Part shown: positions 6,876-56,156 of the stretch, piece by piece
Position numbering within the stretch: position 1 is the stretch's first letter
Layout: every line of letters starts with the position of its first letter
From: Candidatus Parcubacteria bacterium
GTDB taxonomy: Bacteria > Patescibacteriota > Minisyncoccia > Phycocordibacterales > JAKFXT01
Direction of reading: 5' to 3'
Assembly (NCBI GenBank): GCA_021414235.1
Contig: JAIOOV010000004.1
Coordinates: 473,591-537,590 of the forward strand
Length of the DNA: 64,000 bases
Made by a program: the position numbers and the translations under genes
The notes under the pieces: generated by a model
What the model was told of the DNA's origin: nothing
Database searches by the model: none
The model's input: only the letters and a program-made list of their open reading frames with translations

Positions 6876-7319
6876 TTAATTGGAGACAGAAGCGTCGCCA
6901 GAAGCTGCAGCAGCGTCTGCGGAAGCGTCGGCAGCAACCTCAGGAGCCGGAGCTTCTTCAGCGACTGCTTCCTCGGGAGCAGCAGCAACAACTGCAGCAG
7001 CGGCAGCGGGAGCCACAACCTCAGCAGCAGACTCTTCCTTCTTCGGCACAGTCTTCTTCGGAAGGACGTTCACCTTCTTGCCGGTGAGGATACCCTTGGT
7101 GACGAGGAGGTTATGAACGGTGCCGGAAGCCTTGGCGCCCTTACCGATCCAGAAGAGGATGCGCTCGCCATTGAGAACCGGATCGCCCTTGCGCGCATCA
7201 TGAGAGCCGAGCACTTCGAGGAAGCGGCCGCTCTTGGTGGAATTGTGGGAATCAGTAAGAACCACACGGAAGGTGGGCTCGTGCTTGCGGCCAGTGCGCT
7301 GAAGACGGATCATCAACAT
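6876..7319 (-). CDS. rpsP: 30S ribosomal protein S16 with Ala-rich C-terminal extension
   Basis: MLMIRLQRTGRKHEPTFRVVLTDS matches the S16 N-terminus, so the likely start is the internal Met at 7319 (track ORF starts 7340). The C-terminus is a low-complexity Ala/Glu tail. Confidence 0.85.
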   Translation of the reverse strand: MLMIRLQRTGRKHEPTFRVVLTDSHNSTKSGRFLEVLGSHDARKGDPVLNGERILFWIGKGAKASGTVHNLLVTKGILTGKKVNVLPKKTVPKKEESAAEVVAPAAAAAVVAAAPEEAVAEEAPAPEVAADASADAAAASGDASVSN

Positions 7320-7330
7320 AAGTACGTGGG

Positions 7331-7359
7331 ACTCTACCAAAAGTATGGATAAGCGTCAA
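7331..7359 (-). promoter_or_regulatory. Sigma70-like promoter for rpsP (TTGACG, 17 bp spacer, TAGAGT)
   Basis: On the minus strand the -35 is at 7359..7354 and the -10 at 7336..7331 with an exact 17-nt spacer, about 12 nt upstream of the rpsP start. Confidence 0.5.
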
Positions 7360-7369
7360 TAAAGACTAG

Positions 7370-7397
7370 GGGGCCAGCCGTGCGCACGGCTGGCCCC
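7370..7397 (-). terminator. Perfect 11-bp GC-rich hairpin (GGGGCCAGCCG / CGGCTGGCCCC, loop TGCGCA)
   Basis: Inverted repeat read directly. On the minus strand it is followed by CTAGTCTTTATT. Likely terminates the upstream minus-strand transcript just before the rpsP promoter. Confidence 0.4.
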
Positions 7398-7408
7398 TGA
7401 GGCTTAGA

Positions 7409-8005
7409 TTATCTCGGGCTTTTGCCGCGAGAAGTTGGGTGGACTCCCCTATGCTGGACTTGGGAGCCCTTGATCTGGGTGGCGCGACCCGGAGACAGGA
7501 CAGAGCCGGGGTAACGGGTTCCCGATCTCGTCTTAACTGAAGGCAGATCAATCATTGAGGCCGGTCCGAAGGCGCGGGCTTCCGCCAAGAACCCATTCGC
7601 CAGAGCCCCACCGATGCTGTGATGAAGAACCCCGAGGCCGTTGAAGGCAATAACGTCCACGATAGCCTGAGACCCTTTCCGTTCTGCTACCTGGAGCAGT
7701 GCATGATCCCTCAGGAAGAGGAGCCTTGCCTCATCCGGCATACCCAGAGGCTCTCGAGACACCGTGCAGAGATAGTCACCGGCGCCGACGATGTCCGGGC
7801 TTTTCTTGCCCTCCCATACCGGTCGGAACCAGATTACGATCCGGAAATTATCGAGCACGAGGTTGGCATCTTGCAGTTCGCCCATCGAAGGCTCGCGAAA
7901 GAACTGGAATCGGCAAACATCGTCGAGCTTCAGAAATATTGCGCAGAACGCGATGCGCGAAAAGCCCCTGGAGAGGGTCCGCAATTTCGACATTCCAACG
8001 ATCAT
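7409..8005 (-). CDS. Hypothetical protein. Strand and frame ambiguous, because a 159-aa plus-strand ORF (7619..8098) overlaps.
   Basis: 198-aa ORF whose middle part looks protein-like (LLFLRDHALLQVAERKGSQAIVDVIAFNGLGVLHHSIGGALANGF) but whose C-terminal 60 aa look non-coding. GC3 sampling did not discriminate between the strands. Divergent from rnr. Confidence 0.3.
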   Translation of the reverse strand: MIVGMSKLRTLSRGFSRIAFCAIFLKLDDVCRFQFFREPSMGELQDANLVLDNFRIVIWFRPVWEGKKSPDIVGAGDYLCTVSREPLGMPDEARLLFLRDHALLQVAERKGSQAIVDVIAFNGLGVLHHSIGGALANGFLAEARAFGPASMIDLPSVKTRSGTRYPGSVLSPGRATQIKGSQVQHRGVHPTSRGKSPR

Positions 8006-13846: not shown

Positions 13847-16069
13847 CTATTTCGCCACCGCAACCGCTTCATCAAAACGAACCGAGAGAAGCTTCGAAGC
13901 TCCTTCACTACCCATGGTCACACCATAGAGGACACCTGCACGGCTCATGGTCTCACGGTTGTGAGTGATGAGGATGAGCTGGGAATATTTGGAAAGACTC
14001 TCCACCATATCGCCGTACTTGCGGGAATTAGCTTCGTCGAGCGCCGCATCTGTCTCATCGAGAATCACAAAAGGCGGCGGATTAACCTGAGAGATAGCAA
14101 AGAGGAGCGCGATGGAGGTAAGAGCGCGCTCGCCACCAGAGAGCATCTGGAGACCCTTGGTGCGCTTATTGGGAAGAGAGACGCTGATGTCTATTCCCTC
14201 CTCCGCTTCCTCCTGCGGCGCCTCCCCTTCGAGATCCTCCGCTGCCTGCCGGCGACGCTTAGGTGCCTCGACAGTAGAAAGCGCGGCCGTGCCTCCGCCG
14301 AACATGAGCGCAAAGAATTTCTGGAAAGCGCTATTTATCTTCCCCATACCTTCGGTGAATTCTTTCTCGAGTTTCTCAGAGAGCTCTGCAATCAAACCTC
14401 GTAGTGTCTCAGCGGAGTGCGCAAGATCTACCAGTTCTTTTTCAAGATAGGCATCGCGTGTCTTGGTATCCTCGTACTCCTTCTCTGTATCAGCTCCACC
14501 TGCTCCACCCATCTCCTCCAAACGGATCTTCATCTTCTCCAAAGTCTTGCGGCGCGTCTCCTGTTCAAAGCGCGCTTCGCGGCCACCACTCAGCACCACT
14601 TCGTTGTAACGCAGCACCGGGAGCCCAAGAAGCGCTTGGCCCTCCATGAGTTCTGATTTGAACGCAGCTTCGTCACGCTTCAATGTATCCTCACGAGAAC
14701 GCAGTACGAAGAGCTGCTGAGAAAGATCGTTGCGCTTAGAGACCAGCGCAAACATCTCACGCTCCGCGTCGCGGCCAGAGCGCTCATCAGCTTCGATAGC
14801 TTCTTTCAGTTCCTGGTAGTGTTTACGCGCCGCTTCGCTCTTCTCCTTGGCAGCCGATGCCTTACCACCAAGCGCCGCCTTCTCCCCCTTCAGCTTCTTT
14901 ATCTCCGCCTCAATCTCTCCGGAGTGATCATCCGCCGCACGCTTGCCGGAGACGAAAGAGCGGACCAGGCCAGCTATAGTATTCAAAAGTTCACGGAGAA
15001 CTGAAATGTTCTCCTCGCGCGAAGCCTGCGCTACGAAATTCTCCGCCTCCTTCACTACCCGCTCAAGCTCGGAGCGTGGAATAGTGACACTCTCAGACTG
15101 AACACTGTTTGCCGCGCGCGCGAGTGCTTTCTCTTCGGCGAAGATGATACCGTCGAGACGGCTCTCCTCGCGACGAAGCGATTCCATCTCCTCTTCTGCT
15201 TGGCGTAGCGCTCTTTCCGCTTCTGCGAATTCGCGACCCTCTTTGTCCCGACCCTTGCCGGAGAGCAACGACTCGATAGCTTTTACCCGTTCATCCACAG
15301 CCTTCAATTCCGCTGTAGGTCCTTCAAGGGAGGAGGCAAGTGACGCGCGCTCCTCCCCAAGATATGTCTCCTCGCGCTTGAGATATTCCTGATACAGCGT
15401 CTCGAGCTCGCGCTTCAGCGCTTCCGCCTTACGCACCTTCTCCATCTGCTTCTCCAGGAAGCGCAGATGCGGTGCCAATTCCTTACGAAGCGATTCCACC
15501 TGCTTCATGTTCTCGGCAGTCTTCTCCAATTTGCGCTCACTCTCCTCGCGCTTGTACTGATACACCTTGAGGCCGAGTGCATCCTCGATCATCGCTTTGC
15601 GCTCCTTGATGGAGGCATTCAGGATCCGATCCGCTTCGCCCTGAGAGATGATGTGATGGCCGGAGGCGCCGATGTTGGCAGACGCGAGAAGTTCGAGAAT
15701 ATCCTTGAGGCGCACTTGAGTGCCGTTGAGGCGGTATTCGTTGGTACTATCGCGGAAGACCGTACGCTCCAGAGAGACTTCATCGAAGTCCACATTGAAG
15801 ACCTTGGGATTGTTGTTGAAGACGAGCTTCGCAGAAGCACGTGCAGGCTTGGGCAAGGTCTTGGAGCCGGAGAAGATGAGGTCCTCGCCGCGCTTGCCAC
15901 GCATGCTCTTCATGGACTGCTCGCCCAAGACGAAGCGGAATGCTTCGGCCACGTTTGATTTACCAGAGCCGTTCGGCCCCACGATGCCGGTGATCGGCGT
16001 AGTGAAATTGAGCTCAGTCTTCTTGGCGAATGACTTGAAGCCGTAGAGTTCGAGGCTCTTTAGATACAT
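13847..16069 (-). CDS. smc: SMC-family chromosome condensation ATPase, unusually short (740 aa) with no recognisable hinge domain
   Basis: N-terminal MYLKSLELYGFKSF...GPNGSGKSN Walker A. Long coiled coils. C-terminal LSGGERALTSIALLFAIS signature and FVILDETDAALD Walker B. Conserved rnc-smc synteny. Confidence 0.8.
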   Translation of the reverse strand: MYLKSLELYGFKSFAKKTELNFTTPITGIVGPNGSGKSNVAEAFRFVLGEQSMKSMRGKRGEDLIFSGSKTLPKPARASAKLVFNNNPKVFNVDFDEVSLERTVFRDSTNEYRLNGTQVRLKDILELLASANIGASGHHIISQGEADRILNASIKERKAMIEDALGLKVYQYKREESERKLEKTAENMKQVESLRKELAPHLRFLEKQMEKVRKAEALKRELETLYQEYLKREETYLGEERASLASSLEGPTAELKAVDERVKAIESLLSGKGRDKEGREFAEAERALRQAEEEMESLRREESRLDGIIFAEEKALARAANSVQSESVTIPRSELERVVKEAENFVAQASREENISVLRELLNTIAGLVRSFVSGKRAADDHSGEIEAEIKKLKGEKAALGGKASAAKEKSEAARKHYQELKEAIEADERSGRDAEREMFALVSKRNDLSQQLFVLRSREDTLKRDEAAFKSELMEGQALLGLPVLRYNEVVLSGGREARFEQETRRKTLEKMKIRLEEMGGAGGADTEKEYEDTKTRDAYLEKELVDLAHSAETLRGLIAELSEKLEKEFTEGMGKINSAFQKFFALMFGGGTAALSTVEAPKRRRQAAEDLEGEAPQEEAEEGIDISVSLPNKRTKGLQMLSGGERALTSIALLFAISQVNPPPFVILDETDAALDEANSRKYGDMVESLSKYSQLILITHNRETMSRAGVLYGVTMGSEGASKLLSVRFDEAVAVAK

Positions 16070-16135
16070 TGTCTTGTATTGTAACGGTAAACCGGCCTCG
16101 AGGGGAGGCCGGTTCTGTTAGAAAGTCTTGATATT

Positions 16136-16867
16136 TTAAAGCCACGCCCTCGCCTTAAGCCCCGCCCTCGCCGCAGACTGCTCGGCCTCCTGCTTTGACT
16201 TGCCATCGCCCTTGGCAATGAGATCGCGACCGATGTAGACCGCCACAGTGAAGTGTTTGTCGTGATCCGGGCCCTCTTCCTTCATCACCTGATAGGAAGG
16301 CGTGGTACCTTCGATCTCCTGAGCCTTCTCCTGGAAGTGACTCTTGGCATCGAGCCAGAGCTTGTCGCTCACCACTTTGTCAGTAAGCGGGAACACTGTG
16401 CGAGAGATGAATCCGCGCGCAGCTTCGTAGCCCTGATCGAGGAAGATGGCGCCTACAAAGGCTTCGAAAGTATTCGCCAGGATGTACTGGCGCGCGCGAC
16501 CCTTGTCCTTGGCTTCTCCTTTGGAGAGCAGCAGGTACTTATCCATATGAAGATCCGCAGCGATGTCCGAGAGGGTGTTGGCGTTCACGAGTGCCGCACG
16601 GTACGAGGTAAGATCACCTTCAGTGTCTTCCGGGAACTTGGCGTAGAGGAATTCGGTGACCGCAAGCTCAAGAACAGCATCCCCTAGGAACTCCAGACGC
16701 TCGTTGTGCCCTACGGAGAGTTTCTTGTGTTCGTTTAAATACGAGCGGTGCGTAAAAGCCTGCTTGAGGAGGTTAGCATCCTTAAAGGGGACGCCTAATT
16801 CTGTTGCGAATTCAGGGACAGTGGCTGGCATGAGGGTTACGCTACTAGATTGAGCCTTTTCGGGCAA
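16136..16867 (-). CDS. rnc: Ribonuclease III
   Basis: ERLEFLGDAVLELAVTEFLY RNase III signature plus a C-terminal dsRBD. Confidence 0.92.
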   Translation of the reverse strand: MPEKAQSSSVTLMPATVPEFATELGVPFKDANLLKQAFTHRSYLNEHKKLSVGHNERLEFLGDAVLELAVTEFLYAKFPEDTEGDLTSYRAALVNANTLSDIAADLHMDKYLLLSKGEAKDKGRARQYILANTFEAFVGAIFLDQGYEAARGFISRTVFPLTDKVVSDKLWLDAKSHFQEKAQEIEGTTPSYQVMKEEGPDHDKHFTVAVYIGRDLIAKGDGKSKQEAEQSAARAGLKARAWL

Positions 16868-16871
16868 CTCG

Positions 16872-17774
16872 TTACTTTTTCAATAAAAGGTTGATGGCTT
16901 TGGTGACGATGGCCAGGATATCGTCATAGAAATTGAGGTTGAGGATATCGGAGAGCTTGAACCACTGAGTAGCATCGAGTCCGCCCGTCTTCTGGAGCGT
17001 CACGTTCTGGAAGGGACCCTTGGCGAGATAGTAGGTGACCTGCTTGCGGAGCTTGCCCTTGTCCGGGTCCGATGCGATGTACTCGTTGTCCCCCAGCTTG
17101 TCCTCTACCACTATAGGCAGATCTATCTCCTCCTTGATCACGCGCACCACGCCCTCCTTGAGATCCTCGTTCTCCGCCACATGGCCCTTGGAGAGCGTCC
17201 AATGTCCAAAGATGTCGTGTACGAGAGCGAGGTAGACATCGTCTCCCTCCTTCGCATACACCACCGCTCCGACTAATTTCTCAATGGGCATCTGCTCGTA
17301 CGGAATGTCCTCAATCTTCTTACGCTTCCTCTTCGAGACCTCGTCTTTCCCCGGCTCACCAATCTCCTTATAGACCGCTCCCAAGACGCCGTTCACGAAC
17401 TTACCGCTGTTCTCCCCGCCGAAGGTCTTAGCAAGCTCGATAGCTTCGTTGATGGCCACCTTGGCGGGCACCTCTGCCCTATCCGCAAAGAGGAGCTCGA
17501 AGAGCCCGATACGCAGAATATTGCGATCCACCGGGGCGATCTTGTCGATCGGCCAGTCCGGCGCAGCGCGTTCGATGATGAGGTCGAGGTCCGGACGCTT
17601 GGCGAGCACATTTGCCCCTAGCTCCAGCATGAAGGAGAGGTCCCCGCCGCCAGGCGCAAATTCTTCGGCATTCCTATTTACCACTTCCGGGAGAGCCTCG
17701 TTCGGCAAACCGCGACTATCCCACTCGAAGAGGGATTGCATCACGATAGAACGGGAGAGGTGTCTATTTGCCAT
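16872..17774 (-). CDS. nusB: NusB antitermination-factor domain fused to a C-terminal NUDIX hydrolase-like domain
   Basis: The N-terminal ~140 aa are NusB-like (SRSIVMQSLFEWD...AINEAIELAKTFGGENSGKFVNGVL). The C-terminal ~150 aa carry a Nudix-like box GHVAENEDLKEGVVRVIKEEIDL in which the first Glu of REUXEE is replaced by Val. Confidence 0.7.
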   Translation of the reverse strand: MANRHLSRSIVMQSLFEWDSRGLPNEALPEVVNRNAEEFAPGGGDLSFMLELGANVLAKRPDLDLIIERAAPDWPIDKIAPVDRNILRIGLFELLFADRAEVPAKVAINEAIELAKTFGGENSGKFVNGVLGAVYKEIGEPGKDEVSKRKRKKIEDIPYEQMPIEKLVGAVVYAKEGDDVYLALVHDIFGHWTLSKGHVAENEDLKEGVVRVIKEEIDLPIVVEDKLGDNEYIASDPDKGKLRKQVTYYLAKGPFQNVTLQKTGGLDATQWFKLSDILNLNFYDDILAIVTKAINLLLKK

Positions 17775-41890: not shown

Positions 41891-44020
41891 TTAACGCTCC
41901 TCGAAGCGGGGGCTCACCCGGCAGGTAAAGGAGGCGGTATTGGAGACCTTGGCATCCCCGACCCGGCAGACGAAGCGGTAGAGAGACTGGACGGAGACCG
42001 GTGGAGTAAGGACCTGACCAAAAGCGCCGTTGGCGCGCACAGAGAGGTCGGGTCCTGAGATGACACAACGGAGGAACTGAGACTGCTCCGGCGGCACCGA
42101 GCTCACCCGCCAAGGGATGGTGCACTGAGAACCCTTCTGGACGAGCTCTCGCTCCGGCATGAGAGCAGTCACCGCGAGCGCACAGGCCTGCTCGCCAGGA
42201 GGCGGAGGAGCATCAGAGGATTCGTCGGGACAATAGTAGAGAGAGCGGGTTACGCCGCAGGAATTAGGGGCAGACTTGGCTTCAGCAGCTGGCTGCATCT
42301 CGTGGCGAGTGCACTCACCGTCCTTGTCAGTCGCAGTGCAGACATTGCACATCTTGGTCGCGCCGCAGGTAGGACACGGGATCTCCTGACAGGAAGGGAA
42401 TCTCCCCGTCTCTCCTACCCCACAGCTTGTGCGCGGCTGACAGGAGCCGGTCAGTCCGAAATTGATCGCAGTAGGATCCGTACAGAGAGAGCGTCCGCTC
42501 GAATACTGGCAGGCGCCGAGCGCACCGCCATTGAGCGCCAACGGATCGTTGCAGCGGACTGCGCCATAGCGACACTCTCCCGTTTCTCCATAATTGAGAG
42601 CGGTCTGGTCCGCGCAGAGACGCGCGACCGGCTGGTCGGTGCACTGCCCGTTCTCCGGATTCCAATTCGGCTGATTGCTCGGACAAGTGAGACCGATGAT
42701 CACGTCTTTCGTCGCGGGGCACTGAACACCGCTCGGCAGAGTCATGGAAGCGGTAGCCCGGAAATGGTACTGCTGCTTAGGCTGGCTTGCCGCCAGGACA
42801 CCCTCAAGAGAGCGACCATCATTCACCACCGCAAGAGAGGAGGGGAAGGACGTATCACCAGAGGAAGGAGTGAGCGAGTAGCTCTGCGCCGGACGCGAAG
42901 TCTGGATGGTATAGCCTCCGAAGCTTCCCCCTATGATTCCCGCAACACTGCCAGAGCTGGTGATGGTGGGCGTAGAGGTGGCGCACACAGAGGCGGGAGC
43001 TATGGTGATAGCCACGTTCTTTGAAGCTGAAAGAGGGGTACAGCCAGGCGCGCTATTCTCCGCTTGAATGGTACAGGAATATGAACCAGCCGATGTGGGT
43101 ACTCCCCCGATCGACAGAGGACTCGTCCAGCTCGTACCGGAAGGTATGGGCAGACAGCTCATACCGAGCGTCGTGTAGTTGCTGGCAGTTGCTTGATATG
43201 AGAAATTCTCGCCCACCACGCCCGCTGCTGTGCCAGAGGAAGTGATCTCCGGAGCTACAGTCGAACACGTTGCCGGAGTTACTTCTATCTCAAGCACATC
43301 CGCACGTGAACAGCTCGGAGAATTCCTCATGTAGTATCTGTCCTCGCCGCTCCCCGCCACCGTACTGCTCTGGTTATCCCCGGCTCCACCTTCATAGACC
43401 CACTCCTCAAGGTCATTACGAGAAGTGAGGGCTACGGAGTATGTCCCTGGAACAGCAGGCACTCCGGAGATGATGAGACCAGTGGAGTCTGGCACCTGGG
43501 TTACGCCCGCACGCGCCTGCACCCGAGCACTCAAGACGTTCGCGGAAAGGCCGGAACCCGTGAGGCCCGCTGGATCAAGCGAAGTGATACCTGCCCCGAA
43601 CCAGCCTGACTCAAATTCCCCCTTCTCCCGGAGCTGCGGATGCTCCCAAGGAGCAAGATCACGAGAAGGATTGGGATTCACCTGAGCGACCATCACTTCG
43701 TATGAAAAAGATTGACCGGCCTGCGTGGTGACACGGAGGGGACTCGAGAAGCGCGGCGTATTGTATTCAGTGCAATACTGAGGGCTGTAACACTGGCTGC
43801 CGGAAGCACTGCAGTCATCTATATTATTCATTTCCGCTCCGCACTGGCCTCCCGTACAGTCACTGTTACCAGCAGGACTTCCTGAGCTCGTTTCGCTGCC
43901 GCCAGCATCCTCAGCAGCAAGAACTGCAGGAATCTGTCCGATCACAGACAAGTGAATTCCCATGCCCCCGAAGAGAGCAAGCGCGAATGCGGTAGCGAGG
44001 ATAAAAGGAATTTTTTTCAT
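41891..44020 (-). CDS. Large secreted Cys-rich protein with repeated Ig-like segments and a C-terminal domain shared with the YYQ-repeat proteins
   Basis: Signal peptide MKKIPFILATAFALALFGG (internal start at 44020; track ORF runs to 44206). About 60 Cys. C-terminus FTCRVSPRFEER matches the ...CRVNPAFEEI and ...CQVNPTFEEI termini of the 49938 and 50858 products. Confidence 0.6.
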   Translation of the reverse strand: MKKIPFILATAFALALFGGMGIHLSVIGQIPAVLAAEDAGGSETSSGSPAGNSDCTGGQCGAEMNNIDDCSASGSQCYSPQYCTEYNTPRFSSPLRVTTQAGQSFSYEVMVAQVNPNPSRDLAPWEHPQLREKGEFESGWFGAGITSLDPAGLTGSGLSANVLSARVQARAGVTQVPDSTGLIISGVPAVPGTYSVALTSRNDLEEWVYEGGAGDNQSSTVAGSGEDRYYMRNSPSCSRADVLEIEVTPATCSTVAPEITSSGTAAGVVGENFSYQATASNYTTLGMSCLPIPSGTSWTSPLSIGGVPTSAGSYSCTIQAENSAPGCTPLSASKNVAITIAPASVCATSTPTITSSGSVAGIIGGSFGGYTIQTSRPAQSYSLTPSSGDTSFPSSLAVVNDGRSLEGVLAASQPKQQYHFRATASMTLPSGVQCPATKDVIIGLTCPSNQPNWNPENGQCTDQPVARLCADQTALNYGETGECRYGAVRCNDPLALNGGALGACQYSSGRSLCTDPTAINFGLTGSCQPRTSCGVGETGRFPSCQEIPCPTCGATKMCNVCTATDKDGECTRHEMQPAAEAKSAPNSCGVTRSLYYCPDESSDAPPPPGEQACALAVTALMPERELVQKGSQCTIPWRVSSVPPEQSQFLRCVISGPDLSVRANGAFGQVLTPPVSVQSLYRFVCRVGDAKVSNTASFTCRVSPRFEER

Positions 44021-47134: not shown

Positions 47135-48145
47135 TCAGCGGATTATCTGAGAACCGGCCACACAGCTCTGTCGTGCATCTTCCGAAAGTCCGGCGCAGAG
47201 CTGAGGCGAGAGATCCCGCACGCGAGGCTCTGCGAAGAAGCTCCAGGAAGCCCCCTGGCGGCACAGCAGCTGTTCTTCCGTCCCAACGAGACTATTGCAG
47301 ACAGCGAGAGACTTCTTTACATCATACCCCGACTCCGGAGCCACGATATTGCCGATACCTTTGAAGCACGCCTCCCGCTCGCCCTTCGCACCAACCTCGG
47401 CACAGAGAGCGGCTGCTGGAGCGGCATCTCCATTAAATGTCCGCATCCACCATTGCGGCATATCGAAATAGCAGGCTTCGCGATATATGGAAAGAGCGTC
47501 GCAGGGCGCATGCGCCTTCTTCGGGTCGAACATGCGCGGGGAGGTAAGGTCGGGATCAGCCATCGTATGAAAATTGTACTCCATGAAGACTCCGCCGGAG
47601 CAGCCGCCGATCGGTCCTTTCCAGGTGAGCGTCGCACAGATATCGAGCGCCTCCGCGAGTTTGTCATCGCCGACAGACCACAGGAGGCCGTGCCCGATTC
47701 CATGCGAGCAGCCCAGGCCCTTCTCTCCCCACGCTGCCACGCAGGCGCGATCAAGCTGGCCAAGCACTTCTACCCCATGCTCGCTGATGGCCCGCCCGAA
47801 GAAGCTGTGGTAGCAGCCGAAGCCGAACGAGCTGTCACAGACCGCGACCCCAGGAAGTCCCTCTTTCTCATACAGTAACTCCCCAAAGACATGCGCAAGC
47901 GAATGCGCCGAGCCAGGCGGAAGCTTTCCGTACACCTCCACGAATTTCTGGTACGCAGCCTTCGCACCCAGCGTATCTATGGTCTCTGCCCACTCAGCCT
48001 TCTCACGCTTAAAATATTTGGATTGGAGCCGTGGTGGATCAGGGACCTCGGTGCCGCGCGAGATATACAGATAGTATGCTTCGCCAGCTACGAAAAAGAT
48101 CAGGATAGCGGCGGCGAAAATAAGTTTTAACGGGTAACGGCGCAT
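47135..48145 (-). CDS. Membrane-anchored Cys/His-rich protein, paralog B
   Basis: 336 aa. CSHGIGHGLLWS and SAHSLAHVFG motifs. Confidence 0.6.
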   Translation of the reverse strand: MRRYPLKLIFAAAILIFFVAGEAYYLYISRGTEVPDPPRLQSKYFKREKAEWAETIDTLGAKAAYQKFVEVYGKLPPGSAHSLAHVFGELLYEKEGLPGVAVCDSSFGFGCYHSFFGRAISEHGVEVLGQLDRACVAAWGEKGLGCSHGIGHGLLWSVGDDKLAEALDICATLTWKGPIGGCSGGVFMEYNFHTMADPDLTSPRMFDPKKAHAPCDALSIYREACYFDMPQWWMRTFNGDAAPAAALCAEVGAKGEREACFKGIGNIVAPESGYDVKKSLAVCNSLVGTEEQLLCRQGASWSFFAEPRVRDLSPQLCAGLSEDARQSCVAGSQIIR

Positions 48146-49335
48146 GAGGCAGTATAGGGTTGCGGATAAGCAGCGCAGAACTCTCTCATGTAACGACCAT
48201 CGCGGCCTCTAAAATAACGCGCCATATCTGCGAGCCGGGTGAAGCAATCTCTCTGATCGCCCTCTTCCGGAATCACGCTGCAGTAACGTACCGAGGCATG
48301 GAAATCATTCTCCCCTCCCCAATAAAGCGAAGCGACTGCCTGAAAGGAGCAATCCCTCCTGCCATCTTCCGCTGGCGAGAGCGAGCACCACTCATACATC
48401 GTACGCATAGCCTCATCCGGAAGTGATGTCACCGCACGTACATCGCGAGAAGAGAGGATTACCGGGAACTCCTTACCGAAACCACCGAAGCAGGCGCGCC
48501 GATCCTCTCTCTGTGTGAGCGCGTCACAATAGGTCATGCCAATCCTGAAATCTTCCGCCTTCGGAGCTCCCAGATTGCCTCCGGCAGCCTCCATAAGATG
48601 CGGAGTGAGGTAGGTGTAGCAGAAGCCGCGCACATCCTTCGGCATGAAATCCGCGTCACAGGGATAGAGCGGATCTTCCTCCTTGAAATATTTCTTCGCC
48701 TTCTCCTCGCGGAGCTTAGGATCATGTACGCCGCCGGTCATCTCCATGATGGTGCCGCCGATGCACTCCTGGTATTCGTTCGCCTTGTTACCAGCAGATT
48801 CCCCCGCGCGCTTACAGAGCGGCACCGCCTGATCCAGTTCGTAATCCGTATATGCAAGCACGCCATGCCCCAGGCCGTGATAGCACATGTTGTACGCTCC
48901 GGCACCGCCGGGAGCCTTGCGACAGATCGCAGCCACCTTCTCGAGCACGGGCGGCCCGAACTCGAGAAGCGCGCCGATCACTACCGTATGCGAGCAGGCG
49001 TTGCGCAGATCAGGCGTGCAGTAGGCCATACCCTCGAGGCCATATTGCTTGTAGAGCTCATCCCCCACCGTATGTCCCACGAGATGCATGTCCACACCGG
49101 GGACAGAAGGCATGCGGATGAGCACCTGGTACGCATACGGAGCACCTTTGGCTTCGGCAAGATCCCGAAAGTATCGCGAGAGCTCGGGGAAGGAGCGTGG
49201 TGTCTGGAGTTCAGCGAGTTCCGGATATGAACCCGCGCTCGCAAAGAGAAGATAGCCCCCGAGAGAGAGATTCAGAAGGAGAAGGGCGGCAGCTGAAGAG
49301 AGAATCAGCCGGTACCGGAAGAGAGACCGCATCAA
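48127..49335 (-). CDS. Membrane-anchored Cys/His-rich protein, paralog C
   Basis: 402 aa. MCYHGLGHGVLAYT and HLVGHTVGDELY motifs. Confidence 0.6.
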   Translation of the reverse strand: MMRSLFRYRLILSSAAALLLLNLSLGGYLLFASAGSYPELAELQTPRSFPELSRYFRDLAEAKGAPYAYQVLIRMPSVPGVDMHLVGHTVGDELYKQYGLEGMAYCTPDLRNACSHTVVIGALLEFGPPVLEKVAAICRKAPGGAGAYNMCYHGLGHGVLAYTDYELDQAVPLCKRAGESAGNKANEYQECIGGTIMEMTGGVHDPKLREEKAKKYFKEEDPLYPCDADFMPKDVRGFCYTYLTPHLMEAAGGNLGAPKAEDFRIGMTYCDALTQREDRRACFGGFGKEFPVILSSRDVRAVTSLPDEAMRTMYEWCSLSPAEDGRRDCSFQAVASLYWGGENDFHASVRYCSVIPEEGDQRDCFTRLADMARYFRGRDGRYMREFCAAYPQPYTASCAVTR

Positions 49336-49937: not shown

Positions 49938-50795
49938 TTAGATCTCCTCAAAAGCAGGATTGACCCGGCAATCCACCGTCTTCGAGGTATTAACTTCAGA
50001 ACCGTTGTAGCAACGTACTGTGTAGGTACTCGTCTCGGTGACATTCGGTACGGATACCGAACCGGATGTCCCTGTCTGGCTCACTCCTGGGCCCGTGACC
50101 GTGCAGGAAGTAGCATTCGTCGCTGACCAGGTGAAGCTGCAGGAAGCGCCTTTGTTGATCACGATGGAGGGAGCGGCAGGAACCGTGGTGATGGTGGGCG
50201 CCGTACAAGAGGATTCCGGCGGAGCCACGGTAGCGGAACACGCACCCGCACAGCTATACGTACCGTAGGTCACCGCGCCGCAGCTATTAGCGGCAGATGT
50301 ACAGACCTGTCCCTGGTTGGCAGAGCAATAAGAAGCTTGGTAGTAGCCCTGGGAGTAGTAGTAGCCTTGATAGTACCCCTGCGAGTAATAGTAAGGTTGG
50401 TAATACCCCTGAGAGTAGTAGTAGCCTTGGGAATAGTAGTAGCCTTCGTAATACCCCTGGTAGTAAGACTGGTAATAACTTTGATAATACGATTGATAGT
50501 ACCCTTGGTAGTAACCCTGGTAGTACCCCTGATAGTAGGATTGGTAGTAGCCTTGGTAATACCCCTCTGCATAAGAATCCCCCGAAGCCGGGAGTATGAC
50601 TCCTCCCTCCTCTCCATTCGGTGAGAGCGAGTTGTAATCAATCTCTGGAGACTGCGGACCAGAGCTCTTCTCCAAATACCCCAAACTTGCTAGAGAGATG
50701 ACGAGAAAGATTGCCACACTCGCAAAGGAAAGGAGCCTGCGCTCGCGGAGTAGGTTAGAAAATCTTTTATTTATTTCACGAAAAAAGTGCCTCAT
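49938..50795 (-). CDS. Tyr/Gln/Gly-rich repeat protein 1 (YYQGYYQS repeats) with N-terminal anchor and conserved Cys-rich C-terminal domain
   Basis: 285 aa. About 25 copies of (G/S)YYQ-type units, then the ASYCSANQGQVCTSAANSCGAVTYGTYSCAGACSATVAP domain ending CRVNPAFEEI. Confidence 0.7.
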   Translation of the reverse strand: MRHFFREINKRFSNLLRERRLLSFASVAIFLVISLASLGYLEKSSGPQSPEIDYNSLSPNGEEGGVILPASGDSYAEGYYQGYYQSYYQGYYQGYYQGYYQSYYQSYYQSYYQGYYEGYYYSQGYYYSQGYYQPYYYSQGYYQGYYYSQGYYQASYCSANQGQVCTSAANSCGAVTYGTYSCAGACSATVAPPESSCTAPTITTVPAAPSIVINKGASCSFTWSATNATSCTVTGPGVSQTGTSGSVSVPNVTETSTYTVRCYNGSEVNTSKTVDCRVNPAFEEI

Positions 50796-50857
50796 CGTAC
50801 GTCTTTTATTGTAGCACTATGTAAACCCCCCTGACACCAGCGAGGTACGTCCAATTC

Positions 50858-51775
50858 TTAGATTTCTTCAAAAGTCGGATTGACCTGGCAGTTCACCGTC
50901 TTTGTGGTATTCACCATGGAGCCATTGTAACAACGCACTTGGTAGCTTCTCGATTGCGTGATATCAGGGACAGACACTGAGCCCGAAAGACCAGTGGAAT
51001 TCACCCCAGGACCGGTCACGACGCAAGAAGTAGCATTAGCACTGCTCCAGCTAAAGCTGCAAGCATCGCCTCTATTGATGACGATTGTCGGAGAAGGAGG
51101 CGCAACAGTGATAACTGGGACGACGCAGGAAGATTCCGCAGGAGCCACGGTAGCGGAACACGCACCCGCACAGCTATACGTACCGTAGGTCACCGCGCCG
51201 CAGCTATTAGCGGCAGATGTACAGACCTGTCCCTGGTTGGCAGAGCAATAAGAAGCTTGGTAGTAACCTTGATAATAACCTTGATACGCCGCTTGATAGG
51301 CGGACTGGTAATAGCTCTGGTAGTAGGATTGATAAGCAGCCTCATATCCAGCTTGGTAATACCCTTCGTAATAAGGCTGATAGTAGCTCTCGTACGTAGA
51401 CTGATATTGGCTCTGGTAATACGCCTCGTAGGTCGACTGGTACTGGCTTTGATAGTAACCCTCGTACGTAGACTGATATTGGCTCTGGTAATACGCCTCG
51501 TAGGTCGACTGGTACTGGCTCTGGTAATAGCTTTGGTAAGCAGCTTCAAAATAAGAATCCCCCGAAGCCGGGAGTATGACTCCCCCCTCCTCACCATTCG
51601 GTGAGAGCGAGTTGTAATCAATCTCTGGAGACTGCGGACCGTTATCAATCGGCTGAAGGTAGCTCAAGGCGGAAATCACAGCCAAAACCAGAGCCAATAC
51701 CGCCAGAAAGAGCAACTTCCGATCACACAGCAAAGCGCCCATATTACGCCGCCATCTCTTAAGAAGGTACTTCAT
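50858..51775 (-). CDS. Tyr/Gln-rich repeat protein 2 (YYQSQYQSTYEA repeats), tandem paralog of 49938..50795
   Basis: 305 aa. Shares two exact or near-exact nucleotide blocks with its neighbour (50221-50345 = 51142-51266; 50572-50660 ~ 51552-51640). Confidence 0.7.
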   Translation of the reverse strand: MKYLLKRWRRNMGALLCDRKLLFLAVLALVLAVISALSYLQPIDNGPQSPEIDYNSLSPNGEEGGVILPASGDSYFEAAYQSYYQSQYQSTYEAYYQSQYQSTYEGYYQSQYQSTYEAYYQSQYQSTYESYYQPYYEGYYQAGYEAAYQSYYQSYYQSAYQAAYQGYYQGYYQASYCSANQGQVCTSAANSCGAVTYGTYSCAGACSATVAPAESSCVVPVITVAPPSPTIVINRGDACSFSWSSANATSCVVTGPGVNSTGLSGSVSVPDITQSRSYQVRCYNGSMVNTTKTVNCQVNPTFEEI

Positions 51776-51784: not shown

Positions 51785-52609
51785 TTACTGAATCGCACTT
51801 AAGTCTGCCCCAGAGAGGAGTAGAAGATTTTTCTCTACAGAGCGCAGAGAACCCGCAAGACCTTGTGGATGATATCGAGCGTCGTTCCCAGGGTACGCCC
51901 TACCCCACTCCTCTGGCGTCATGGCTTTGAAACCAGCAAGAGCTTTCTCCAGGGCACTACGAGCCTCTTCCCTCTCTCCGAGATTAAGGAGCGCAACACC
52001 AAGAGAGTTCTGAAGCCAAGGATTCTCCGGATGATAAGAAAGGGCCTTTTCTGCAACCGTAAGGACATCCTTATAGCGACCCTGCCGAAAATAGATCCAA
52101 CAGAGGTCATTCGCTCCCGCCCAGCTCTCCGGTTCCAATTCCAGATACCTAGCGAAGTCACCCTCTGCCTCCGAGAGATTATTCCTATATCCGTACACAA
52201 GCCCACGCATGTAATAAGCGTTGTGGATGGAAGAATCCAGCCGCAGGGTCTCGTTTATAGCCTCGATAGCTTTGCTATAACGCCCCTGAAAGAAATAAAC
52301 CCGGGAGAGACCGAAATGGATATATCCCGGCTCTGGATACCCTAAGTCGAGAGCCCTCTTATAAAGTTCCTCTGCCTTCTTTAGGTCATGAGCATTCTCT
52401 CCGAGATAAAAATTACCCGCGCGATAGGCTAAGCTAGCATCCTCCGGCGCAAGCGCGAGAGCTACGGCAGGCATATGTAGCCTCTCCATAAACACATGGG
52501 CCCACAAGGGTCGATGGAAATCGACATAGGAATAGAGGCTCTTCCAACTAAGAAGAGTCGTGAGAGCGAGGAGAAGACCAAGGAGGCAAAGAACCGCACG
52601 CAGGCGCAT
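51785..52609 (-). CDS. TPR-repeat protein with signal/anchor
   Basis: 274 aa, multiple TPR-like helices (AYRAGNFYLGENAHDLKKAEELYKRALDL...). Confidence 0.6.
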   Translation of the reverse strand: MRLRAVLCLLGLLLALTTLLSWKSLYSYVDFHRPLWAHVFMERLHMPAVALALAPEDASLAYRAGNFYLGENAHDLKKAEELYKRALDLGYPEPGYIHFGLSRVYFFQGRYSKAIEAINETLRLDSSIHNAYYMRGLVYGYRNNLSEAEGDFARYLELEPESWAGANDLCWIYFRQGRYKDVLTVAEKALSYHPENPWLQNSLGVALLNLGEREEARSALEKALAGFKAMTPEEWGRAYPGNDARYHPQGLAGSLRSVEKNLLLLSGADLSAIQ

Positions 52610-52652: not shown

Positions 52653-54119
52653 ATGAATACCCAGTATCAAAGAGAAGACCCGCGCAGACTTGAGGTTGCG
52701 ATCCGTACAAAAGATTTTGCTTCTCTCTATGTGAAATCTTACTGGAAACGAAGTTTCCTAGAAGCCCTCCTTGGGACCCTGGAGGAACGTCTCGGGATAG
52801 AAATCTTGACCAAAGTACCGGAGAATCTTCGTGATGTTCACCTGCTGATATTCAAGAACCTGACAATCATAGAAAAATTGAGGAGACAGGGAATATTAGA
52901 GAAGGTCGAAGTCCTTAATCCTCCACCAGATGAGCCCCCTCTATACCGCGTTCATACAAAGGGCCATCTTCGCGCCTCCGGTGCAAGCTTCCTTGATCCT
53001 GAAAAAGCCCTGTGGAGCGCGCTCGGGGAGTGCGTCGAACGCTCTCTATGGTCAGGCTCTTCGGAATGGTACGAAAAGAAGATCAAGGTCTCTTCGTATA
53101 AAGAGCTTCCTGGGGATAAGATAGACCCCCGCTCAATTACTGGTTTCTCCGAGGAACAGAAGAGCTTGGATCCGATGCTACAAGTGGATGAATCGACAGT
53201 TCTCGGCTGGGTACAAGCCAAAGAAAAAATCTCCGGAAAGATGATCTGGGTACCTCTCCAGCTTTTCAGCGCCGAATATTGCCAGAAGAGACAGAAGTCT
53301 CCTGAACGACCGGAAAACGTCGAGCCACTTCTCCGTTCCGCCGTAACCACAGGACTCGCGACTTCTTCACATAGCCACGAAGAAGCCGTCCTCTACGGGG
53401 CATTGGAAGCGATCGAACGCGATGCTTTCATGATCTGCTGGCTCAAACGCCTCTCGCCTCCTCGCATCGATATCAATCACCTCGCCGAACAAGACGATGA
53501 TCTGAAAAGCATTCTTGATTCCCTGGCTCGCTACCACCTCCGTGCAGAACTGCTTCTACTTCCGACTGATTTTCCTTTCCTGGTCATCGCAGCCGTTCTG
53601 CTCGATGAAAGCGGAAAGGGGCCGGCGTTTACTATGGGCGCAAAGGCGCATTGGGATATGAAAACCGCCATCCTTGGAGCCCTCTCTGAAGCCGCTAGCG
53701 TACGCTTTTCTCTTAAAACCGCATACGAAGCCCCTGTGGACATGAAGAAGGTCGGTCGCAAGGAGCGCTTGATCTATTGGGCAAAGGAGGAAAACACCCC
53801 GAAACGCAGCTTTCTTACACAGGGGGAAATAAGAAAGATCACTCTAGAAGAGAATAAGAGTGATACTGGCACAGAATCTCTCCGACTGTCGGAAGCCTTG
53901 AGAAATAAGAAATATCCATTGTATGAAGTCGAGATAAGTTCCGAAGCAAGCCGTAGAAGCGGTTTTCGTTCAGTCTGTGTGCATATCCCTGACCTGCAGC
54001 CGATGCATCTCGACGAGCGAGTTCCCGCTCTCGCCGGAAAACGCCTGGCAGAGATTCCCTCTCTCCTCGGATACGAACCCGCCAAAGAAATGAATCCTGA
54101 ACCCCACCCCTTTCCATGA
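52653..54119 (+). CDS. YcaO-domain protein, azoline-forming cyclodehydratase type (C-terminal PxPxP)
   Basis: GASFLDPEKALWSALGECVERSLW and HEEAVLYGALEAIERDAFMICWL (YcaO ATP-binding Glu motifs). Extreme C-terminus NPEPHPFP. Stop TGA overlaps the start of the next gene (ATGA). Confidence 0.8.
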   Translation: MNTQYQREDPRRLEVAIRTKDFASLYVKSYWKRSFLEALLGTLEERLGIEILTKVPENLRDVHLLIFKNLTIIEKLRRQGILEKVEVLNPPPDEPPLYRVHTKGHLRASGASFLDPEKALWSALGECVERSLWSGSSEWYEKKIKVSSYKELPGDKIDPRSITGFSEEQKSLDPMLQVDESTVLGWVQAKEKISGKMIWVPLQLFSAEYCQKRQKSPERPENVEPLLRSAVTTGLATSSHSHEEAVLYGALEAIERDAFMICWLKRLSPPRIDINHLAEQDDDLKSILDSLARYHLRAELLLLPTDFPFLVIAAVLLDESGKGPAFTMGAKAHWDMKTAILGALSEAASVRFSLKTAYEAPVDMKKVGRKERLIYWAKEENTPKRSFLTQGEIRKITLEENKSDTGTESLRLSEALRNKKYPLYEVEISSEASRRSGFRSVCVHIPDLQPMHLDERVPALAGKRLAEIPSLLGYEPAKEMNPEPHPFP

Positions 54120-54874
54120 ATAACCATTTCGCCAAGCGGTTCCATCATCAAGCCATCGCGAACTGGCGTCTACCCAAAACTCGCGATGCCAAGAATCCGA
54201 TCCCCAGGGAAGATATCTTATTCAAGACATACCCTCGCTCTGAAAACACGGCGCTCGCCGAGCCGCTTCCCCTCAGCCATACACTCGAGAAAACCCTCTC
54301 CGAGCGGAAGACGACGCGCTCCTTCGATCCAGTCTCCGCCGTCAGTTTCCAAGAACTCTCTTCCCTGCTCTTCTGGAGCGCCGGACTTAGAGAGAACCGT
54401 ACAGACCCACAACAGAGCAAACGGTTCTATCCATCCGCGGGAGAACGTTATCCGCTAGAGATATATATAGCTGCGCGCAACGTCGATGGCTTGCCTAAAG
54501 GCCTGTATCACTTCAATCTCCTCAAGAACTCTCTGGAGAAGATAGGTGGTGAGGAATACTGCGATAATTTTCAAAAAAACCTCGGGTACGAATGGTCTAG
54601 GGATACCGCAGTAGCCATCCTCATCACCGGAGTATGGGAGCGGACTTTCTCAAAATACGGGGATTTCGGATATCGGCTCATATGTACAGAAGCCGGACAT
54701 GTGGCGCAAAATCTACAGCTCATAGCCCAATCCCTTGGTCTGGACTATGCCTCTATCGCAGGGTTCAAAGAAAAAGAGATGGATACCCTCCTAAATCTGG
54801 ACTCGGATAAAGAATCATCTCTCTACCTGACCCTCATAGGAAAAGCTACACCTTCCACCCGAACGAACGCATGA
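54116..54874 (+). CDS. SagB-type (McbC-like) FMN-dependent dehydrogenase of the nitroreductase superfamily
   Basis: SERKTTRSFDPVSAVSFQELSSLLFWSAGL...YPSAGERYPLEIYI...ICTEAGHVAQNLQLIAQSLGL. Translationally coupled to the YcaO gene. Confidence 0.75.
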   Translation: MNNHFAKRFHHQAIANWRLPKTRDAKNPIPREDILFKTYPRSENTALAEPLPLSHTLEKTLSERKTTRSFDPVSAVSFQELSSLLFWSAGLRENRTDPQQSKRFYPSAGERYPLEIYIAARNVDGLPKGLYHFNLLKNSLEKIGGEEYCDNFQKNLGYEWSRDTAVAILITGVWERTFSKYGDFGYRLICTEAGHVAQNLQLIAQSLGLDYASIAGFKEKEMDTLLNLDSDKESSLYLTLIGKATPSTRTNA

Positions 54875-55940
54875 GTGCGGCGAACTCTTCATCTACCAGA
54901 GAAATACGTTCTACATTAAGCCGCGTCTGTACATCGGACAGAGCCTCTTTGCTTGCCAGGTACTTATAGAAACGCTCGTTGCGATACGCAGGATCAGAGA
55001 ACGGCGCAAGGAGGACGGATATCTCTCCCGCTTTTGACTTTCCATACTGTTGAGAAAGATACAGGGCGTATTGATACCCTGTCCAAATGCGCTGATCACG
55101 GTTACCCTCCGTCAGATTCCACGCCTCTTTATAGAGAGCCTCTGCTTCAGCTGCATGATCTTCGCCTGTGAGAGTAGCGATGCCGAGCAGGATAGCCTGT
55201 CGCGTGATGCGCGCGGAAAGCACGGAATTATCGAAGCCCAAGGTACGGGCTGCGATGAGTTCATCGTTGCCTATGCGTATCGCCTCGTGCACCTGGTTCC
55301 ACAGAGACTTAAGATTTTCTTCATCCGCGCTCGTACGAGCCTGCCTCACACTGAGCGCAAGGATCTCAGGGAAGGATTTATCAAAAGAAATACGGAAGAG
55401 AGAGACAGCCGTAGGATAAAAAGAGCTTGCATACTCCGAGAGTCGAGTATATGCCGCCTCAATATTCCCATTGGAGTTGAAGGCAGAGTACGGGGTCTTG
55501 TCGAAGACGTATTTCGAATATTCCGGATCTTTGTTATTAGCCAAGTAAAGCTCGCCCATAAGCTGGATAGACCAAGCGCGAATGATGTCCGCATAATTCT
55601 CATTGGCAGCCACCTCTCGGAGCGTAGCTATAGAACTCTGATATTCCTTAGCGAGTCCCTGAGCATACCCCACATTATATTTGATATACCCTTCTTGATT
55701 GAGATCCTGGGCATCAAGCAATGCCGCTTGGAAGAAGGGAATAGCTTTAGAGAATTCACGGGCCTTCATGTGCGCAAGACCTTTTTTGAAATCCGCATTC
55801 TGCTCCCTAACATACGTCACCGTATTCGGCTTCACAGAGGGTTCTTGCGATTGAGCATAAAGATAATAAATACTCCCCAAGAAGAGAACTAGGAGCAAGG
55901 CGCCGATAATAGTGCGGGATGTGAGATAAGAGCGAAGCAT
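54846..55940 (-). CDS. Membrane-anchored TPR-like or helical-repeat hypothetical protein
   Basis: 364 aa. N-terminal TM. Start codon is 3 nt downstream of the stop of the small Gly/Cys ORF. Confidence 0.5.
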   Translation of the reverse strand: MLRSYLTSRTIIGALLLVLFLGSIYYLYAQSQEPSVKPNTVTYVREQNADFKKGLAHMKAREFSKAIPFFQAALLDAQDLNQEGYIKYNVGYAQGLAKEYQSSIATLREVAANENYADIIRAWSIQLMGELYLANNKDPEYSKYVFDKTPYSAFNSNGNIEAAYTRLSEYASSFYPTAVSLFRISFDKSFPEILALSVRQARTSADEENLKSLWNQVHEAIRIGNDELIAARTLGFDNSVLSARITRQAILLGIATLTGEDHAAEAEALYKEAWNLTEGNRDQRIWTGYQYALYLSQQYGKSKAGEISVLLAPFSDPAYRNERFYKYLASKEALSDVQTRLNVERISLVDEEFAALMRSFGWKV

Positions 55941-55943: not shown

Positions 55944-56156
55944 TTAGGAACCACCGCACCCCTCGCAACCACAGCCATCGGCGCTACCGCCGCCATCCCC
56001 TCCACCTGAACACTCACAATCCTTCCCGCCTCCCTGCGCAAGCACTGAGGAAATCTTCTGTTCGCTCCAGAAGGAAGCATCTCCATTCGACCTATCAAGC
56101 GCCGCATGAAACATGAAAGCGGCGCTTACCCCCGCCACGACGCCCAACCCCTTCAT
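55944..56156 (-). CDS. Small Gly/Ser/Cys-rich peptide (70 aa from ATG 56156, or 85 aa from GTG 56201). Candidate McbA-like TOMM precursor, or a metal-binding peptide.
   Basis: C-terminal tail AQGGGKDCECSGGGDGGGSADGCGCEGCGGS. Homologous to the N-terminal region of the 24282..26123 protein (FAQEGGDGGG...GGCEGCGG). Confidence 0.45.
   Translation of the reverse strand: MKGLGVVAGVSAAFMFHAALDRSNGDASFWSEQKISSVLAQGGGKDCECSGGGDGGGSADGCGCEGCGGS

Follow-up and report, generated by a model that had tools for sequence, protein, structure and literature searches.

In a 64,000-nt stretch of DNA from a Candidatus Parcubacteria bacterium (assembly GCA_021414235.1, contig JAIOOV010000004.1, positions 473,591 to 537,590; hereafter the window), two adjacent paralogous genes, A and B, encode putative surface proteins in which a low-complexity tract of Tyr/Gln units (the YYQ tract) lies between a membrane anchor and a Cys-rich, Ig-like head. 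The pair appears to be a rare branch of a widespread protein family of Patescibacteria, of which a gene for a putatively secreted tetratricopeptide repeat (TPR) protein is the conserved partner. The tract itself is not specific to that family, but is a portable, fast-evolving low-complexity module that is also found on unrelated secreted proteins, and two segments on either side of it appear to have been homogenised by gene conversion. This description (i.e. gene structure, Ig head, family and synteny, portability and turnover of the tract, and conversion) can be held with high confidence. That the tract is a multivalent association segment is a tentative proposal, and description and mechanism taken together are slightly favoured as the best explanation of the locus. 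The original prediction for this locus had the architecture right, but it missed the TPR partner, the motif family, the portability of the tract and the nearby YcaO and SagB genes with a precursor of their own.

Architecture of the pair and its family

Both open reading frames (ORFs) are present on the minus strand with the predicted lengths (Table 1) and follow the predicted common plan, in which the N-terminal anchor is followed by SPNGEEGGVILPASGDSY (the sequence between anchor and repeat in both genes), the Tyr/Gln repeat and the Cys-rich, Ig-like C-terminus. The two proteins are 58% identical. Their N-terminus is basic, with seven Lys/Arg within the first 22 aa, and contains a hydrophobic helix (residues 19-38), which would make it a signal-anchor with the N-terminal end inside and the remaining chain outside. 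The 26-aa juxtamembrane motif, PQSPEIDYNSLSPNGEEGGVILPASG, is identical in the two proteins, which end in NPAFEEI and NPTFEEI. For anchoring by sortase (LPXTG), inspection by eye and by script revealed neither the motif nor a C-terminal hydrophobic segment in either protein. A lipobox was likewise absent on such inspection, the first Cys of gene A not occurring before residue 157 and the early Cys 17 of gene B preceding the helix.

Table 1. Positions of the features in the window (nt).
Feature	Position	Strand	Remarks
Gene A, 285-aa YYQ-tract putative surface protein	49938-50795	minus	ORF; tandem paralog of gene B
Gene B, 305-aa YYQ-tract putative surface protein	50858-51775	minus	ORF; 100% match to P0001; architecture as gene A
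Gene A basic segment and transmembrane helix, aa 1-46	50658-50795	minus	gene B counterpart 51638-51775
Gene A juxtamembrane motif PQSPEIDYNSLSPNGEEGGVILPASG, aa 47-72	50580-50657	minus	gene B counterpart 51560-51637
Gene A Tyr/Gln tract, aa 73-154	50334-50579	minus	YYQ[GS] and YYYSQG units
Gene B Tyr/Gln tract, aa 73-174	51254-51559	minus	12-aa unit YYQSQYQSTYE[AG]
Gene A 6-Cys module SYCSAN...ESSC, aa 155-197 (43 aa)	50205-50333	minus	gene B counterpart 51125-51253
Gene A Ig-like beta-sandwich and tail NPAFEEI, aa 198-285 (88 aa)	49941-50204	minus	gene B counterpart 50861-51124
Conserved C-terminal tails of genes A and B	49941-49961 and 50861-50881		pLDDT 59, outside the confident strands
Putative conversion tract 1	50221-50345 = 51141-51265		exact 125-nt identity, offset 920; last repeat unit and most of the Cys module
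Putative conversion tract 2	about 50571-50660 vs 51551-51640		2 mismatches; juxtamembrane motif
TPR protein, 274 aa, N-terminal signal/anchor	51785-52609	minus	Pfam TPR matches; 9 nt upstream of gene B
YcaO	52653-54119	plus	PF02624, E = 1.6e-48; divergent from the TPR gene
SagB-type dehydrogenase	54116-54874	plus	TIGR03605, 141 bits, above cut-off
364-aa anchored helical protein	54846-55940	minus	just downstream of the small peptide
85-aa ORF (70 aa from ATG 56156)	55944-56201	minus	hydrophobic leader, Gly/Cys/Ser-rich tail AQGGGKDCECSGGGDGGGSADGCGCEGCGGS
Three paralogous His/Cys-rich anchored proteins, 402, 336 and 402 aa	45925-47133, 47135-48145, 48127-49335	minus	

Membership of a family follows from a motif, S-P-x-G-x-x-G-G-x-x-[IV]-P-A-S-[CG], that is common to 18 fetched proteins, most of which have no Tyr/Gln tract. 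Genes A and B carry it as SPNGEEGGVILPASG at residues 58-72, behind an N-terminal helix, as in the family, where the motif lies at about residues 45-70. Both genes also combine the Cys module and the Ig domain with a [NI]-P-x-[FW]-x-E-[IF] end, which also occurs in P0031-P0145 and among the ORFs that follow TPR genes. The final Cys of the motif has become Gly in genes A and B, as it has in P0002, P0162, P0163 and L129.

At every motif locus inspected, a gene for an anchored TPR protein of ~255-281 aa lies upstream on the same strand. It is the immediate upstream neighbour in the window, L126, L130, L131 and each of the two separate pairs of L001; in L129 it stands two genes upstream. The TPR protein of the window is 26-75% identical to its counterparts in these five loci, and the TPR proteins cohere as a family, with shared motifs such as W..AYPGND and NPWLLNS. 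A search with the TPR alignment gave 187 relatives in metagenome contigs, from which 66 loci with enough downstream sequence for testing were kept. In 43 of these a G..GG..[IV]PASC ORF is situated just downstream of the TPR gene, and several of the others have the characteristic C-terminal tail there. The TPR gene is the conserved partner of the motif family. Since the ORFs downstream of the TPR genes in the 66 loci hold only 0-1 YY units, the window pair is best regarded as a rare, YYQ-rich, Cys-to-Gly branch of a widespread family.

The protein of gene A was modelled with AlphaFold2 from a 30-sequence alignment. Residues 155-280 have a predicted local distance difference test score (pLDDT) above 93, with strands at 201-278, and Foldseek matched this region in the PDB solely to Ig/FnIII-type sandwiches (titin Ig, a CbhA FnIII-like module and antibody V domains; E ~1e-3, TM-score to target <= 0.64), which bears out the predicted Ig-like C-terminus. 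A search of the head against PDB sequences found nothing. The Cys positions of the 6-Cys module are nearly invariant in the homologue alignment A2, and the module is tandemly copied in the homologues P0032, P0062 and P0068. In total, 1478 representative proteins match the C-terminal 131 aa (E <= 1e-3), and the homologues comprise two groups, i.e. large multi-Ig proteins and proteins of 200-550 aa with a 4-Cys module, an Ig domain and a [NI]Px[FW]xE[IF] end. This tail is located at or within 4 residues of the C-terminus in dozens of surface proteins of the Candidate Phyla Radiation (CPR; P0031-P0145, L150-L209), and it could be a recognition or sorting peptide. The same Cys module and Ig domain, with an SPRFEER tail, recur in a ~709-aa surface protein within the window (41891-44020, minus strand, the ORF being listed to 44206), which occupies the place of the YYQ/CARDB protein P0007 in the syntenic locus L004.

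Scans of both proteins against Pfam, NCBIfam and PHROGs gave nothing significant. CARDB (PF07705) was not matched either, neither gene having any Pfam family at E <= 0.1, and for the functional amyloids (curli CsgA/CsgB, FapC, TasA and chaplins) there was no Pfam or NCBIfam match to either protein. With PDB sequences and the literature equally empty, the earlier statement that there is no characterised homologue still holds. As for public annotation, gene A has no entry in a protein collection of 5.8 billion clusters, and gene B corresponds to GenBank K8Q93_03770 (Candidatus Parcubacteria bacterium), which is annotated as a protein of 269 aa. Because that start is placed 36 codons downstream, the deposited protein is devoid of the transmembrane helix.

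Gene conversion and turnover of the repeats

The initial suggestion of gene conversion on the flanks was based on two blocks that are nearly or fully identical between the genes. The identity of the 125-nt block is indeed exact, although its partner lies at 51141-51265, one base away from the 51142-51266 given originally, and the other block (50572-50660 versus 51552-51640) has precisely the 2 mismatches claimed. When the codons for the same amino acid in A and B were scored for synonymous differences, these amounted to 2/30 in the motif tract and 2/41 in the Cys-module tract, versus 9/12 in the N-terminus, 29/47 in the repeats and 34/60 in the Ig region. Pooled, this is 4/71 inside the tracts versus 72/119 (60%) outside (Fisher p = 2e-15). 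A difference-free run of 125 nt would have a probability of ~3e-19 at an assumed mismatch density of ~0.29 per site.

A close relative allows the event to be placed in time. L126, a 221-kb contig of the Joint Genome Institute (JGI) in which a neighbouring protein is 89% identical, has a tandem pair in the same order. There, the paralogs are only 78% identical in the motif tract and 72% in the Cys-module tract, compared to 97.4% and 96.1% for the window paralogs, and all cross-genome pairs between the window and L126 are 69-79% identical in both tracts. In the Ig region gene A is 78% identical to its L126 ortholog versus 65.5% to its paralog. From this four-gene comparison it follows that the tracts were homogenised in the window lineage after its split from L126. 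Gene conversion between the paralogs, as originally suggested, thus seems well supported, by the synonymous-site test as well as by the L126 paralogs not being homogenised in the corresponding tracts. The tracts are slightly nearer to the L126 copy of A, which weakly suggests that gene A was the donor. Gene conversion as such is textbook behaviour of tandem paralogs. A terminator scan flagged a hairpin, CTCCCGGCTTCGGGGG, with a T-rich tail in both genes (50579-50594 and 51559-51574, minus strand); it sits inside the converted motif tract, where it codes for LPASGDSY, and is probably incidental.

Further afield, the distant lineage L129 possesses its own tandem YYQ-rich pair (5908-6822 and 6899-7807), with a PASGG motif, YYQA units and a P/S/T-rich spacer, behind two TPR genes and a gene for a His/Cys solenoid protein. 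Duplication of the family gene therefore appears to be recurrent. The contigs of close relatives end in or beside a YYQ gene (L127:1-650; L128:1-112), which is consistent with assembler breaks at repeats or duplicated tracts.

Such contig ends, the origin of the window from a metagenome-assembled genome (MAG) and the absence of gene A from the protein collection might point to an artefact, in which mis-assembly produced the tracts or the duplication, or in which the ORFs are not real genes. This is barely credible, since the same tandem pair occurs in the same gene order in an independent JGI assembly (L126) and a second lineage (L129) has a tandem pair of its own. Moreover, bubble-popping may turn near-identical sequences into identical ones, but it cannot create a 25-30% contrast with the flanks. 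The head domain, which folds confidently, is also under purifying selection, as follows from a comparison of gene A with its L126 ortholog over the 131 C-terminal codons, of which 53 show a synonymous and 16 a non-synonymous difference.

The repeats evolve in a different manner. Cut from after PASG to before SYCSAN, the tract measures 82 aa in A and 102 aa in B, and not 120-150 aa as was first estimated; Tyr makes up 48% (A) and 35% (B) of it, calculated for a narrower cut of 79 and 99 aa. The unit types do differ between the paralogs as stated, being YYQ[GS] in A and YYQSQYQSTYE[AG] in B. They are also wholly different between the window genes and L126, and the free drift that was predicted for the repeats fits with this complete difference of the repeat cores. 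According to Tandem Repeats Finder, the DNA identity between repeat units is just 71-83%, barring a 72-nt unit that is present twice in gene B at 97% identity, i.e. a recent duplication. The codons in the tract of gene A are mixed (TAT 12 / TAC 27, CAA 9 / CAG 7), which together with the low DNA identity between units indicates that the periodicity is kept at the amino-acid level. It is proposed that the repeats change by slippage or unequal exchange. In the AlphaFold2 model of gene A the tract has a pLDDT below 50, which suggests that it is intrinsically disordered, and no sequence match to it was found among PDB chains.

Portability and possible role of the YYQ tract

When species-representative genomes were scanned at the DNA level for three YY[Q/E]x units in a row, at least 120 loci were obtained. 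Among the matches listed, long in-frame tracts in bona fide secreted proteins were found at at least 19 loci, almost solely in MAGs of Patescibacteria, the exceptions being a few giant alphaproteobacterial proteins; full-length searches added up to a few dozen proteins with Tyr/Gln tracts. In the secreted proteins of Patescibacteria the tract is joined to at least 5 unrelated partners, including a ~190-aa FVIDHPLDPxNKLLYHSFVESPD domain (type 1, for which a PDB sequence search found nothing), CARDB with Ig (P0004-P0007), LamG, a Gly-rich domain, a type IV pilin N-terminus and a Hint domain. A single genome (WB4_3_0878) encodes at least 3 YYQ proteins of two architectures. In P0161, P0167, P0169, P0173, P0174, L044, L087 and L118 the tract starts 1-6 residues past a predicted signal-peptidase site of the AxA type, and in the pilin-like P0175 it forms the C-terminal tail. 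With the tract at the free N-terminus of the mature protein, it can be no mere linker in those proteins.

The reading preferred here is that the proteins of genes A and B would be extracytoplasmic, probably at the cell surface, and membrane-held by their N-terminus, with helix, motif, tract, Cys module, Ig domain and tail following each other outward. The YYQ tract would be a multivalent sticky segment which, through aromatic stacking and Gln/Tyr hydrogen bonding, may hold secreted proteins to the cell envelope or to one another. In the proteins of genes A and B the tract would lie in the wall zone, with head and tail displayed on its outer side. As for the upstream TPR protein, its probable binding site is either the juxtamembrane motif or the FEEI-type C-terminal tail. 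Motif and Cys module appear to have been recently homogenised by conversion, and the repeats would turn over by slippage or unequal exchange.

The tract could, alternatively, be a passive stalk, i.e. a flexible or semi-rigid spacer that lifts the head through the wall without any binding activity, comparable to the Ser-Asp or Pro-rich stalks known from surface proteins in Gram-positive bacteria. It does lie between anchor and head in both genes, is predicted to be disordered and varies freely in length and unit type between close relatives, and in homologues its place is taken by tandem 4-Cys modules, by Ig repeats or by segments rich in P/S/T. However, in the eight or more proteins that carry the tract right after a predicted signal-peptidase site there is nothing to space, nor is there in the C-terminal tail of P0175, and the maintenance of Tyr-Tyr-Gln chemistry with mixed codons argues for selection on composition and not on length alone. 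A passive stalk therefore appears rather unlikely, and it is because of the position at free termini of unrelated proteins and the strict Tyr-Tyr-Gln chemistry that an association segment is considered the likelier of the two.

Originally, the composition was taken to indicate a cross-linked or amyloid-like material, in which dityrosine or DOPA-quinone cross-links, or amyloid, would form a structural layer of the envelope. The Tyr fraction of 35-48% and the resemblance to Tyr-rich cross-linked materials and to Q/Y-rich prion-like domains would agree with this, as might some of the genes nearby. Cupredoxin-like genes are present in the cluster, and a gene of the His/Cys-rich family that has three paralogs in the window (Table 1) lies within an 8-kb block of the YYQ gene in 10/19 CPR loci, compared to 4/35 TPR loci (p ~0.002). 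Very widespread in Patescibacteria, that family counts at least 1042 homologues (identity of 43-54% within the sequences sampled from Paceibacterota, Kaiserbacteria and Taylorbacteria), with two invariant HxxxH motifs, 12 invariant Cys and more conserved His/Met/Glu, and without a Pfam model. A tyrosinase- or hemocyanin-like oxidase was considered and rejected for it, as AlphaFold2 predicts an alpha-solenoid (pLDDT 94) that has no close fold match in the PDB and no fold similarity to tyrosinase or hemocyanin; a PDB sequence search with the 336-aa member also found nothing. It is possibly a new metal-binding protein. In L001, a PAP2-family protein with a weak match to a vanadium-haloperoxidase domain (VCPO) is encoded at 15952-17073, flanked by the second YcaO cluster on one side and the second TPR/YYQ pair on the other.

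Although this PAP2/haloperoxidase-like gene might be counted in favour of cross-linking, its match is weak and it has no equivalent in the window, where Pfam and NCBIfam scans identified no peroxidase, laccase or tyrosinase either. In addition, AlphaFold2 does not give the tract a beta-rich prediction. The cross-linked or amyloid-like material is a reading from composition that is not specifically supported, and it is quite unlikely.

Several points weigh against an association segment as well. Most TPR-partnered members are without a YYQ tract (0-1 units over the 66 loci), so that the tract seems dispensable for the role of the family, and its replacement by tandem 4-Cys modules or Ig repeats fits a passive spacer equally well. 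The Gly that takes the place of a near-invariant Cys (PASG versus PASC) may mean that part of the family function has been lost in the pair. The association function is argued from composition and position, the binding by the TPR protein from gene order, and a low pLDDT is no proof of disorder. Finally, there is no gene A product in the public protein collection, and the annotated gene B is without the anchor.

Neighbouring genes, significance and known systems

Upstream of the TPR gene, in the divergent direction, lie genes for YcaO and a SagB-type dehydrogenase, followed by a 364-aa helical protein and a small ORF on the opposite strand (Table 1). The small ORF has an AxA(D)-like site between leader and tail (tail in the window, GGGKDCECSGGGDGGGSADGCGCEGCGGS). 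It has an ortholog in L126 (3117-3353) that does not figure as a called gene in the gene lists of L126 and of the other contigs of P0177, and two similar small peptides occur by the two YcaO genes of L001 (7730-8047 and 13136-13378). Of the 35 TPR loci that span 6 kb or more, 14 contain YcaO, 13 SagB and 7 a similar small peptide. The 364-aa protein is homologous to the genes for proteins of ~370-418 aa in the same position in L001, L129, L130 and L131 (hhalign 97.3%, E = 2.4e-11). The recurrent unit thus comprises small peptide, ~370-aa helical protein, TPR protein and motif protein, with YcaO-SagB as an optional addition; L131 is without YcaO, and its small peptide has a tail of Gly/Asp that is devoid of Cys. 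The small Gly/Cys/Ser-rich ORFs beside the YcaO and SagB genes are likely azole-peptide precursors and candidate substrates of YcaO/SagB.

It is conceivable that the YYQ proteins themselves are the YcaO/SagB substrates, with azol(in)es being formed in the Ser/Cys-rich motif or in the Cys module. The motif of the family ends in a near-invariant Ser-Cys, the converted tracts are precisely motif and Cys module, and YcaO occurs in 14/35 (SagB in 13/35) TPR/family loci, compared to 1/18 CPR loci without a TPR gene for YcaO (p ~0.01, the loci not being phylogenetically independent). Nevertheless, separate leader-bearing Gly/Cys/Ser-rich peptides are present in the same clusters (in the window, in L126, twice in L001 and in others), many family loci are without YcaO, and the window proteins have Gly for the motif Cys yet retain YcaO. 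With their 285-305 aa, their signal-anchor and a Cys module that folds confidently, the proteins do not resemble precursors of thiazole/oxazole-modified microcins (TOMMs), which typically have fewer than ~120 aa, and they were rejected as such; the role suits the separate 85-aa ORF. Because of the dedicated precursor-like ORFs and the change of the motif Cys to Gly, the YYQ proteins as YcaO substrates were set aside as the main explanation; this is very improbable.

A more far-reaching but unlikely possibility is that small peptide, ~370-aa protein, TPR protein, motif protein and optional YcaO-SagB would constitute a conserved five-component surface system of Patescibacteria, by which the (sometimes azole-modified) peptide might be displayed, or otherwise handled, at the envelope. 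In such a system the YYQ tract would serve as a lineage-specific tag for envelope retention or homotypic adhesion, common to many further secreted proteins, possibly Tyr-cross-linked and with a possible part in episymbiont attachment.

Past gene A, the same strand holds, in this order, genes for a 178-aa anchored protein, the three His/Cys-rich paralogs, a 205-aa protein, a cupredoxin-like protein (PF13473), a PD40-repeat protein and the ~709-aa surface protein, followed by rpsB and tsf.

An attached life on other cells is presumed for the Patescibacteria (CPR), whose surface molecules are nearly all hypothetical proteins. A Tyr/Gln module that recurs on many of their secreted proteins could be a device for envelope retention or adhesion, and the TPR and motif proteins form a small, defined target for interaction studies. 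The statistical link of YcaO-SagB and the peptide to these loci suggests that the azole-peptide clusters flagged in the CPR by genome mining may be tied to the cell surface and not to antibiotic production. If the tract is only a spacer, the locus would be an ordinary, fast-evolving duplication of a surface protein. Conversion in itself is nothing unusual; follow-up by specialists is merited by the recurrent module and by the conserved system that surrounds it.

Within the library searched, there was no paper on YYQ repeats or on Tyr-rich or low-complexity proteins of CPR/Patescibacteria, and on YcaO in the CPR only cluster counts at the level of antiSMASH were found. What is new is taken to be an undescribed Tyr/Gln module, together with an undescribed TPR-partnered family, on a low-complexity-stalk surface protein whose layout itself is of a known kind. 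With TOMM clusters the locus has in common the YcaO and SagB matches and the small Gly/Cys/Ser-rich peptide. The YYQ proteins, however, are not precursor-like, no E1-like or RRE partner was identified in the window cluster, and to our knowledge the TPR protein, the ~370-aa helical protein and the motif surface protein are not components of described TOMM clusters. Resilin, plant extensins and Bacillus CotC/CotU/CotG likewise are secreted structural proteins with Tyr-rich repeats, but the motifs are different here, no associated oxidase was found and there is no Pfam or NCBIfam match. By analogy, the [G/S]Y[G/S]Q domains of prion-like proteins such as FUS and the repeats of Sup35 (PQGGYQQYN) are also rich in Tyr/Gln/Ser/Gly, predicted to be disordered and potentially multivalent through their aromatic residues, whereas the YYQ tract is bacterial, probably extracytoplasmic and built of strictly periodic double-Tyr units (YYQx) with a far higher Tyr fraction.

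In its portability, and in its occurrence at either end of many unrelated secreted proteins from a single lineage, the tract behaves like the choline-binding (CW_binding_1), SLH and GW modules, as would be expected of an envelope-retention tag. Those modules, however, are folded and have defined ligands, while the YYQ tract is of low complexity and predicted to be disordered. The overall layout is that of the Gram-positive stalk proteins with Ig domains (Clf/Sdr, SasG/Aap), in which an anchor, a variable repetitive stalk and an Ig head are likewise combined, repeat number changes fast and tandem paralogs are common. The proteins described here differ from these in having an N-terminal helix as anchor instead of a C-terminal LPXTG and a stalk of Tyr/Gln instead of Ser-Asp/Pro, and in being encoded by a CPR bacterium alongside a TPR partner gene.

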